Of a stretch of DNA of 6,725 nt, positions 1 to 4,895 are shown in pieces; within the stretch, counting starts at the first letter, position 1; each line of letters begins with the position of its first letter. Origin of the DNA: a virus (taxonomy: Duplodnaviria; Heunggongvirae; Uroviricota; Caudoviricetes). The DNA is taken from IMG/VR virus record IMGVR_UViG_2548876853_000015; one strand, given 5' to 3'. The position numbers and the translations under genes are program-made. The notes beneath the pieces are model-generated. The model was not told where the DNA came from. It saw only the letters and a program-made list of their open reading frames with translations, and ran no database searches.

Positions 1-188
1 AGGCACCAGTAACTGAGAGAGTTGCGCGAATCAGTGGAAAAGCGGGCAGAGAAAATACAGGGAGCATCCGGAAGCTGAGAACGTGCCTCATCTTCTGTCG
101 GTGCAATAACGAAGTGATAGTGACGTTTCTGGCAGGAATAGAAGCGCCAGATGAATTCAGGATGAGTTGGGGTAGGGACAGTAGCCAT
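1..188 (-). CDS. Hypothetical protein, N-terminal part only (ORF continues past the left edge); lies downstream of a C1-operator-like promoter and a long structured leader
   Basis: Minus-strand ATG at 188-186 preceded by a strong SD (AAAGGAGG, 8-nt spacer); frame stays open to position 1 (about 62 codons, MATVPTPTHPEFIWRFYSCQKRHYHF...). Absent from the ORF track only because no stop lies inside the window. No family recognised. Confidence 0.5.
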   Translation of the reverse strand, partial: MATVPTPTHPEFIWRFYSCQKRHYHFVIAPTEDEARSQLPDAPCIFSARFSTDSRNSLSYWC

Positions 189-373
189 AATGGCAGCCTC
201 CTTTGACTAAGTTAAGGAGCTACCGCGTGAGGTCTCAATCTCAATGGCGGTAGCACTGACTGGGTTGAGACTACCGGCGTCAAAGGGAACCGGCCTGCCT
301 TTCGGCAGCCCAGCCAGCACTACCATTGATTTCGGAGCTAAACGCTACGTATGGCTGTGCGATGGCATGACAC

Positions 374-395
374 AAAAAAAGACGCTTTCGGCGTC
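374..395 (-). terminator. Rho-independent terminator-like hairpin on the minus strand (GACGC-CGAAA-GCGTC followed by T7)
   Basis: Plus 381-395 gacgctttcggcgtc forms a 5-bp GC-rich stem with a 5-nt loop; plus 374-380 is an A7 run, giving a U7 tract on the minus-strand RNA directly 3' of the stem. It sits about 150 nt downstream of the pacB stop and about 100 nt downstream of the predicted promoter. Confidence 0.5.
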
Positions 396-501
396 TGTGT
401 CGCCTTTGACATTATCCGGGGTCTCAATCCCGGCACCCGTTTTAATGAGGTGCCTGATAAGCATAAACCGAAAATGCCTCAAGGCGCAAGAGGTCAGGTT
501 C

Positions 502-544
502 AATGTAACATCGGTAGTTAAAAAACACAATTTATTAGAGCAAA
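502..544 (-). promoter_or_regulatory. Candidate sigma70 promoter overlapped by a P1 C1-repressor operator-like 17-mer, immediately 3' of pacB
   Basis: Minus strand 544..528 reads TTTGCTCTAATAAATTG, matching the recalled P1 C1 operator consensus ATTGCTCTAATAAATTT at 15 of 17 positions. A -35 TTGTGT (530..525), 17-nt spacer and -10 TACATT (507..502) follow on the same strand. Confidence 0.5.
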
Positions 545-547
545 TAT

Positions 548-3851: not shown

Positions 3852-4895
3852 TTATCTAACGCTCGACGAGTGACTTGTGATAGCGCCGACTCCAAGCGCG
3901 TAATCAAAGAACAATCGTTGATGCATCGCCAGCCTACCGTGCGTCTTCTCCCAATTATCGCGGTCACGCTCAATATCACGCTGGCATGACTGGCACAGAG
4001 GAATTGCGTAAATGTCATGCGCGCATAATCGACTATGACGAACGATATAAGGCGTAATGTGAGCGCCAGCTCCCGCCGCTCCACACCCACAGCATGGACG
4101 GGAAGCAACAAAGTCCATGTACTCAGGTAATTTTAGCGATTGCAGTTTTGGTATTTTGAAATGCGCCATGCCAGGGTCGGAGTCAACATCCACAGGGCAT
4201 ACTTTTGCACGCATCGGCGCGGCGCGTTCTTCCATCATCTGAACATATGCTGTAGCGCGATCGTCATACGGGCGAATATCCGCCTCTTTCAGAGGTCCGC
4301 TATCCTGCGTTGCGGCTTTCATCTTATTTATTGATATACGGCAAACTTCTTCCGGCATCAGGTGCATCATGTTGCGCATGAAAGCCCACCAGCACAGTTC
4401 CTGAATACTTAAATCATGGCCATCTGAAAACCCCATTTCCTGACGGGCGACATCCAGGATCCAGTTAACGCGATTATTATGCAGCGTTTCTTTCAGCTCA
4501 TTAAAACCACGCATCCGGTAATGGTTATCGTGATGCCAGCACAACAACACCGCGCTATTGTCTCGTTCTGCGTGGACAATATGGTTGTCACACCAGCTAC
4601 GATCTGCGGCCTGGCATTGCCCCTCTTTCCTGCGCAACCACGCCACCAGCGCGTCAATTCCACCAATACGGCGAAACAGTTCATCGCTGTTAAAAAACGG
4701 CTGCAACGCCTCATTTGTTGCCATAGTTTGCTCGGAAACAACGAGGCCGTCGTCCATGTGCTCGATTAACTCACGCGGCACCGGCTCCATAATAAATTTA
4801 CGGCCAGCCTCCACCAGCTTTCTGACTTCCTGATCCACTTTGAATGTGGCGACGCCAAGCTCTTTTTGTACAAAGGGAGTAATTACGGCTTTCAC
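3852..4895 (-). CDS. Post-doc region protein, 347 aa, with a Cys/His-rich C-terminal module (possible zinc-binding HNH-like fold); function unknown
   Basis: 347-aa ORF with GTG start at 4895 (SD AAGGTG upstream). The C-terminus carries CCGCG ... H ... H ... CAH ... CQSC spacing typical of zinc-ribbon / HNH-like motifs. The position between doc and lpa corresponds to the pdc (post-doc) genes of P1; a resemblance to DUF968-type prophage proteins is a recollection, not verified. Confidence 0.65.

Follow-up and report, generated by a model that had tools for sequence, protein, structure and literature searches.

In phages P1 and P7, RNase P cuts the c4 RNA from the operon RNA; c4 binds the sites a2 and b2 and blocks icd and hence the antirepressor, and C1 keeps repression. 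The immI operon of both phages is said, in the account of Citron and Schuster from 1990, to consist of the c4 antisense RNA with the sites a1/b1 and a2/b2, followed by icd and ant1/ant2. The P1 GenBank record (NC_005856) lists the elements in the order Oc4, P51a, P51b, a1, b1, c4, a2, b2, icd and ant1/2. A summary of P1/P7 c4 immunity is given in PMC8546580, and immI of these phages is also covered in PMC7313666.

For Gifsy-1 of Salmonella, Hershko-Shalev et al. (2016) proved by compensatory mutations that the IsrK hairpin pairs with a downstream c4-like region (PMC4825925). IsrK provided in trans activates the antirepressor, with the translation of anrP rising more than 100-fold (PMC4825925). 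The Gifsy-1 arrangement IsrK/orf45 (STnc1160)/anrP resembles the locus described here in its terminated leader small RNA, the loop of which pairs with a processed RNA (about 80 nt) from further downstream, in the antirepressor gene lying downstream, and in a precursor that alternates between cis-paired and c4-folded forms. It differs in that the c4 equivalent is treated as a small ORF (orf45), that IsrK is activating and that icd is missing (PMC4825925). From the adjacent Rfam matches, the Stx phage annotation and the description in PMC4825925 we infer that STnc1160 is the c4 equivalent. The immunity region of satellite phage P4 (CI RNA, seqA, seqC) also carries a processed small RNA between repeated complementary sites on the same transcript and is homologous at the DNA level. 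Its output, however, is premature termination of the replication operon and not occlusion of a ribosome-binding site before an antirepressor (PMC4825925).

The locus between pacB and c1

The analysed stretch of DNA (the window, 6725 nt) is 99% identical to the P1-like phage-plasmid RCS47, with the genes on the minus strand. pacB has its end at 548, and an Icd-like ORF extends from 188 to beyond the left window edge; the elements described below are situated in the 359-nt stretch between the two. The 5' part of the Icd-like ORF (1..188, minus strand, ATG at 188..186) matches NCBIfam NF033153 phage_ICD_like with 50.3 bits against a cutoff of 25. In RCS47 the Icd-like ORF codes for 73 aa, and there is a 4-nt overlap between its stop and the start of an antirepressor gene (an 'anti-repressor' CDS of 371 aa), as between icd and ant in P1; the ant gene itself is located outside the window and the icd-ant arrangement was read from the 99%-identical RCS47. 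This 371-aa protein is different from the antirepressor of P1 and P7.

The location of the module differs as well. It is found between pacB and c1, whereas the canonical immI lies between sim and kilA, and it accompanies a canonical P7-type immI in the same element. RCS47, JL22, 673R5 and D6 each carry this module plus a canonical immI, and Ro157c2YLVW, like JL22, 673R5 and D6, shows two places for module-type loci. In an element of this type the two modules are the one at window positions 190-547 (context L001 3971-8032; L124) and the canonical P7-type immI. In the RCS47 record the RNA genes of the module carry no annotation, and a published comparison listed this insertion just as 'two short hypothetical orfs and ant' (PMC6906374). 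PLSDB holds 427 records matching the stretch, 49 of them at 99% identity or more, from P1-like plasmids of E. coli and Salmonella.

A first-pass annotation of the window had pointed to a 10-mer repeated in the loops of two hairpins in this stretch. With the RNA family matches, exact complementarities, family-wide covariation, predicted structures and gene context observed at the locus, the two copies of the 10-mer are very probably the a1 and a2 targets of a c4-type antisense RNA, belonging to an immI-like c4-icd-ant operon on the minus strand. A known regulatory device is thus rediscovered in a new, so far unannotated member with its mechanism unchanged, and the departures from the textbook immI concern the specificity, the IsrK-like leader, the antirepressor and the pacB-c1 location. 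On this reading an unannotated 'intergenic' stretch of 360 nt in P1-like plasmids makes up a complete RNA-based immunity switch.

The repeated loop, the leader RNA and the c4 RNA

The 10-mer GGTCTCAATC occurs exactly twice in the whole 6725-nt window, at 231-240 and 420-429 and both times on the plus strand, in agreement with the first-pass annotation. For hairpin 1, the 8-bp stem formed by 219-226 and 247-254 was also described accurately, with perfectly complementary arms and exact coordinates; it folds with -18.9 kcal/mol (z = -3.9). Within the 20 nt that had been taken for its 'loop', 243..240 pair with 231..228 as an inner 4-bp stem, and an apical loop of 8 nt is left, AUUGAGAC at 239..232 of the minus strand. 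Hairpin 2 exists too, with one correction: its 3' arm cccgg is located at 429-433 and not at 428-432, so the stem is formed by 416-420 with 429-433 and the loop spans 421-428. In both hairpins the 10-mer takes in the closing G-C pair and an identical loop of 8 nt, which reads AUUGAGAC on the transcribed minus strand.

Recurrence of the 10-mer taken by itself is weak evidence. The probability of about 0.06 that had been estimated for chance was reproduced, with some direct 10-mer repeat found in 0.058 of Markov-simulated 359-nt regions. This frequency, together with a DNA operator-like site nearby, is what could be put forward for regarding the repeats as DNA-level protein sites (operators, iterons), as a functionless duplication remnant or as chance, an explanation that we consider extremely improbable. 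A second repeat, an 8-mer at 200-207 and 403-410, has a spacing similar to that of the 10-mer copies, and when it is added the joint chance probability falls to about 0.007. Moreover, the 10-mer copies share only cores of 7-8 nt with differing flanks, and both cores are exact complements of exposed c4 segments.

Directly after the pacB stop codon lies a C1-operator-like sequence (527-543). This candidate C1-repressor operator, TTTGCTCTAATAAATTG (527..543, minus strand), is identical in 14 of 17 positions to the annotated P1 operator AATGCTCTAATAAATTT (Oc4/Op51 homologue). Because of its position the module is probably C1-controlled and would represent a second antirepressor module under C1, comparable to P1 P51a. 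A putative sigma-70 promoter, homologous to P1 P51b, is situated at 460..489 (minus strand), with the -35 hexamer TTGCGC at 489..484, an 18-nt spacer and the -10 hexamer TATGCT at 465..460. Both hexamers coincide in the alignment with the -35 and -10 boxes annotated for P1c4, and the isrK model begins at 453; judged from the alignment to P1, by which alone the promoter was placed, transcription would be expected to start near 453. A consensus promoter scan of positions 1-800 gave no sigma-70 site, the P51b-like promoter being missed because just 8 of 12 positions match.

The leader with a1 and b1 (375..453, minus strand) scores 60.2 bits with the Rfam model RF01394 isrK, the gathering threshold of which is 50. 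In the predicted fold, a hairpin is followed by the a1 hairpin, single-stranded b1 and a terminator. Score and terminator place the leader in the IsrK Hfq-binding RNA family, Hfq binding being putative. With the Rfam model RF03163 c4-a1b1 the region 466..413 (minus strand) gave 22.3 bits, below the threshold of 46.7, compared to 51.0 bits for P1. This miss reflects divergence of the leader sequence with the sites present, since this stretch reaches the threshold of the overlapping isrK model and contains both the a1 hairpin and b1; the leader is IsrK-like rather than P1-like and, unlike that of P1, scores as isrK and not as c4-a1b1. The a1 hairpin, which is hairpin 2 (416..433, minus strand), has the stem CCGGG/CCCGG and the loop AUUGAGAC at 428..421 with the core UUGAGAC at 427..421, and its flanks, ccggga-TTGnnnn-ccYgg, hardly vary among 69 family loci. 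Site b1, GUCAAAGG (403..410, minus strand), is the complement of the c4 b' loop. Between a1/b1 and c4 lies an intrinsic-terminator-like hairpin, AGACGCCGAAAGCGUCU followed by U7 (373..396, minus strand), which is the 3' hairpin of the isrK model.

The c4 antisense RNA itself, which the first-pass annotation had overlooked together with the b1/b2 pair over the ribosome-binding site and the identity of one arm of hairpin 1 with the c4 3' strand, was located between the two copies of the 10-mer. Rfam model RF01695 C4 matches at 330..243 (minus strand) over the full model 1-87 with 75.4 bits (threshold 45, E = 1e-14); P1's own c4 reaches 68.8 bits with the same model. The predicted mature form has 79 nt (246..324, minus strand), its ends being taken from the alignment to the 77-nt P1 c4. 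These predicted ends, with the 5' motif UCAAU/GG and the 3' tail ...ACCGCC, resemble their P1 counterparts UUAU/GG and ...GCCACC. In isolation, c4 folds into a 16-bp closing stem and two hairpins (-46.7 kcal/mol, z = -5.6), the same fold as in P1 and P7, with b' in the loop of the second hairpin and a' in the 3' junction, as the C4 family requires. The b' segment CCUUUGAC is found at 279..286 and the a' segment GUCUCAA, in a single-stranded junction, at 265..271 (both minus strand).

The proposal that the repeated loop is an antisense-RNA target is supported by this gene, as a' is the exact complement of the 7-nt core in both copies and is the partner of the repeated 10-mer. The search for a complementary partner within the replicon was therefore successful (a' 271..265 against 238..232 and 427..421), although the a'-a2 core amounts to 7 bp only. 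Likewise, b' (286..279) is complementary to 207..200 and 410..403. No other occurrence of the a and b sites or their complements was found within the 6.7-kb window. The comparison with P1 c4, which had also been suggested, shows that the locus is that system: in P1, the homologous positions carry the labels a1 and a2 of the C4 RNA in the GenBank record. Every part proved homologous when five sequences, those of the window, D6, P1, P7 and the canonical RCS47 immI, were aligned, and the order of the parts from the C1-operator-like site to icd and ant is the same as in P1 and P7.

The a2 hairpin, which is hairpin 1 (219..254, minus strand; outer stem 254..247/226..219, inner stem 243..240/231..228), presents the core UUGAGAC at 238..232 within its loop AUUGAGAC (239..232). 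Site b2, GUCAAAGG at 207..200 (feature 197..207, minus strand), overlaps the Shine-Dalgarno sequence AAGGAGG (203..197) of the Icd-like gene, the last G of which (197) is 8 nt before the ATG (188..186). The P1 GenBank record likewise shows b2 overlapping the icd Shine-Dalgarno sequence. This position bears on whether control could be of the P4 type, in which c4 would pair with a1/b1 and a2/b2 on the nascent transcript and act mainly through premature transcription termination instead of translational repression. P4 CI is a detectable homologue of the region, the authors of the IsrK study drew the same parallel (PMC4825925), and the intrinsic terminator is located 6 nt past b1. However, b2 lies exactly on the icd Shine-Dalgarno sequence and the b2 complement ends in its GGA in most family members, which argues for translational occlusion as in P1, and no terminator-like site follows a2/b2. 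Control of the P4 type is thus regarded as rather unlikely.

Three tttcgg motifs noted earlier in the region are present at 300-305, 330-335 and 386-391; the start at 386 was correct and the starts given for the other two, 301 and 331, were off by one. All three had been described as ccgaaa loops, which holds for two of them: one caps the first c4 hairpin as a GAAA tetraloop, and another is the loop of the terminator hairpin. The remaining copy, immediately before the 5' end of c4 in a single-stranded part of the leader, forms no loop. A special role of ccgaaa as a third element was discarded, as two copies are ordinary GAAA-type caps and one is an unpaired leader segment. No tRNA or tmRNA was detected in the window by ARAGORN. 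A 104-aa ORF on the plus strand (244-558), antisense to the leader and c4, gave no family match and is listed as a hypothetical protein in the D6 and JL22 records; it is probably spurious.

Covariation across the c4 family

To collect related loci, IMG/VR was scanned for the invariant c4 skeleton GCCGG-N10-14-CCGGT-N3-6-CAACCC, and 86 unique loci with a c4-like closing stem were kept. A site was counted as matched when a perfect complement of at least 7 nt was found, and cognate flanks were compared with the flanks of loci with other specificities. For a1, a match was present in 87% of cognate versus 10% of non-cognate flanks, and for a2 in 85% versus 9%. The values for b1 were 57% versus 4% and those for b2 79% versus 3%, in the same 86 unique loci. 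The a' and b' sequences of these loci are highly diverse and freely combined. Site a2 is always located about 20 nt past CAACCC, and b2 about 50 nt past it, mostly ending in the Shine-Dalgarno GGA.

Compensatory changes in related elements had been proposed as a check of the antisense reading, and the a and b sites were indeed found to change along with a' and b'. In a 64-sequence alignment, changes on both sides were seen in 5 of 7 a'-a2 pairs and 8 of 8 b'-b2 pairs, far above shuffled and slid controls. As the 64 rows were preselected for an a2 match, the unbiased figure for a2 is 85% and not 99%. The closing stem of c4 is 93.6% paired in the 64 sequences, with 10 pairs changed on both sides. 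Such joint change of the cores with a' and b' across the family is not expected from a DNA-binding protein or from chance, and DNA-level repeats or chance recurrence were ruled out by this covariation.

Between the window, P1 and P7 both a and b vary, and a' and b' vary to match. At the a site the window has UUGAGAC, P1 has UUGACAG and P7 has UUAGCAG, while the b site reads GUCAAAGG, GUUAGUG and GAUUGUG, respectively. RCS47 has a canonical immI of the P7 type, with UUAGCAG as a and GAUUGUG as b. Since their a'/b' sequences differ, the two c4 RNAs of an RCS47-type element should be orthogonal, without cross-reaction. The presence of two c4-icd-antirepressor modules with differing a and b bears on heteroimmunity and on the coexistence of resistance-spreading phage-plasmids.

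In this region phage D6 is 94% identical to the window and has the a specificity in common with it, but its b1 and b2 both read GCAAAAGG and its b' reads CCUUUUGC, so that three sites have changed in concert. The regions compared were 3995-4360 of the D6 locus (L002) and 200-410 of the window, which has GUCAAAGG and CCUUUGAC instead. The specificity of c4 is modular, and diversification proceeds through coordinated three-site changes such as the one between D6 and the window. At one other locus (L051) the b' of the window is combined with another a'. On each of two IMG/VR contigs, a pair of c4 genes with differing a'/b' is found at a distance of about 660 nt (L027, 4711-4743 and 5370-5402; L055, 9728-9760 and 10384-10416).

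In RefSeq plasmids, PGAP annotates an 'ash family protein' CDS of 39 codons at 326..207 (minus strand), over c4 and a2 (L126 2645-2764), with the AUG at the c4 5' end as its start. No Pfam or NCBIfam match was obtained for this ORF. As a cause of the conservation it was rejected: its length and frame vary over 64 loci, it has 14 codons in P1 and it is often fused to the downstream gene. The frame is open in a fraction of 0.70 of the 64 loci versus 0.66 and 0.41 for the other two frames. The 'ash' CDS looks like RNA conservation read as protein and like a counterpart of the Gifsy-1 'orf45'; a small translated ORF over c4, as claimed for orf45, is possible.

Hairpin 1, the c4 closing stem and the proposed regulation

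In the window, as in P1 and P7, the 3' strand of c4 serves as the 5' arm of the hairpin that presents a2 in its 8-nt loop. More precisely, the 5' arm of hairpin 1 (254..247) consists of the 3' strand and tail of c4, and the sequence at the 5' end of c4 (GGUAGU...) recurs in the 3' arm of the hairpin (226..219, GCGGUAGC). The arrangement of c4 3' strand, short inner stem, apical loop with a2 and downstream arm was present in every one of the 53 unique family sequences, with no fewer than 10 bp between the arms in each. The mean energy of hairpin 1 is -17.7 kcal/mol, compared to -11.6 when the 3' arms are swapped between loci. In the alignment, all 8 pairs of the outer stem have changed on both sides, and 85% of cells are paired versus 37-57% when the partner is slid. 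The pairing of hairpin 1 itself is thus well supported. Because the partner of the a2 arm is on c4, hairpin 1 is possible in unprocessed or 3'-extended RNA only.

As the downstream arm copies the c4 5' strand throughout the c4 family, the c4 3' strand can pair with either the c4 5' strand or the downstream arm, and hairpin 1 competes with the c4 closing stem. When the 301-nt transcript is folded to minimum free energy, a1/b1 are paired in cis with a'/b' and the freed 3' strand of c4 forms hairpin 1. Tentatively, the choice between the two partners could be a conserved conformational switch in the precursor between mature, processable c4 and the a2 hairpin, coupling c4 maturation to the decoy state of a1/b1, a possibility that we rate as rather doubtful. 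In the literature outside the primary P1 papers no description of such a switch was found. This alternative hairpin, which has one strand in common with c4 throughout the family, is a modest further point.

The cis pairing also has a bearing on the role of the leader. In an activation of the IsrK type, the leader (453..373) with a1/b1 would be an anti-antisense RNA acting in trans, which binds a'/b' of c4 or its precursor and switches icd-ant translation on; the two loops would then be regulator and target and not equal targets. This explanation overlaps the main one, and we give it a little less than an even chance. The isrK model is above threshold and the terminator is present, with a comparable hairpin and U-run between a1/b1 and c4 in 59 of the 69 family loci, and the cis fold of the 301-nt transcript matches 'structure A', which was demonstrated by experiment for Gifsy-1 (PMC4825925). 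On the other hand, the P1 arrangement is identical, yet c4 is genetically a repressor there and a2/b2 are functional targets (P1 record annotation). The Gifsy-1 locus, moreover, is without icd and was analysed just to nucleotide 180, leaving out the a2/b2 region.

Under the preferred reading, with the two loops as targets of c4, the operon would start near 453, downstream of the C1-operator-like site. The leader would show a1 in the 8-nt hairpin loop and b1 single-stranded, and the intrinsic terminator could then release a short IsrK-like RNA. Read-through transcripts would include c4 (324..246), presumably excised by RNase P in analogy with P1. The a' segment of c4 (GUCUCAA) would pair with the a2 loop directly behind c4, and the b' loop (CCUUUGAC) with b2 over the icd Shine-Dalgarno sequence. 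With icd translation blocked, the translationally coupled antirepressor would stay off and C1 would remain active, keeping the plasmid prophage lysogenic and immune. Sites a1/b1 may serve as a decoy for c4 in competition with a2/b2, acting either in cis, as part of the precursor, or in trans, as a terminated leader RNA, and could in this way set the threshold of the switch. For RNase P processing, translational repression, the coupling of ant and the decoy role, P1/P7 and Gifsy-1 are the models followed here.

Two smaller features were seen around a2 and b2. A local hairpin between CUCCUU (220..215) and AAGGAG (203..198) is predicted in the lineage of the window and D6 (window 198-220, minus strand) and is not obvious in other family members; according to this prediction it would sequester the icd Shine-Dalgarno sequence even without c4. 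A partial tandem repeat, UUGAGA-UUGAGAC, is found at 232-245 (minus strand), its first unit forming the inner stem of the a2 hairpin. This first UUGAGA unit could pair with a' by 6 bp plus a G-U pair, which would provide a second, overlapping a2 register.
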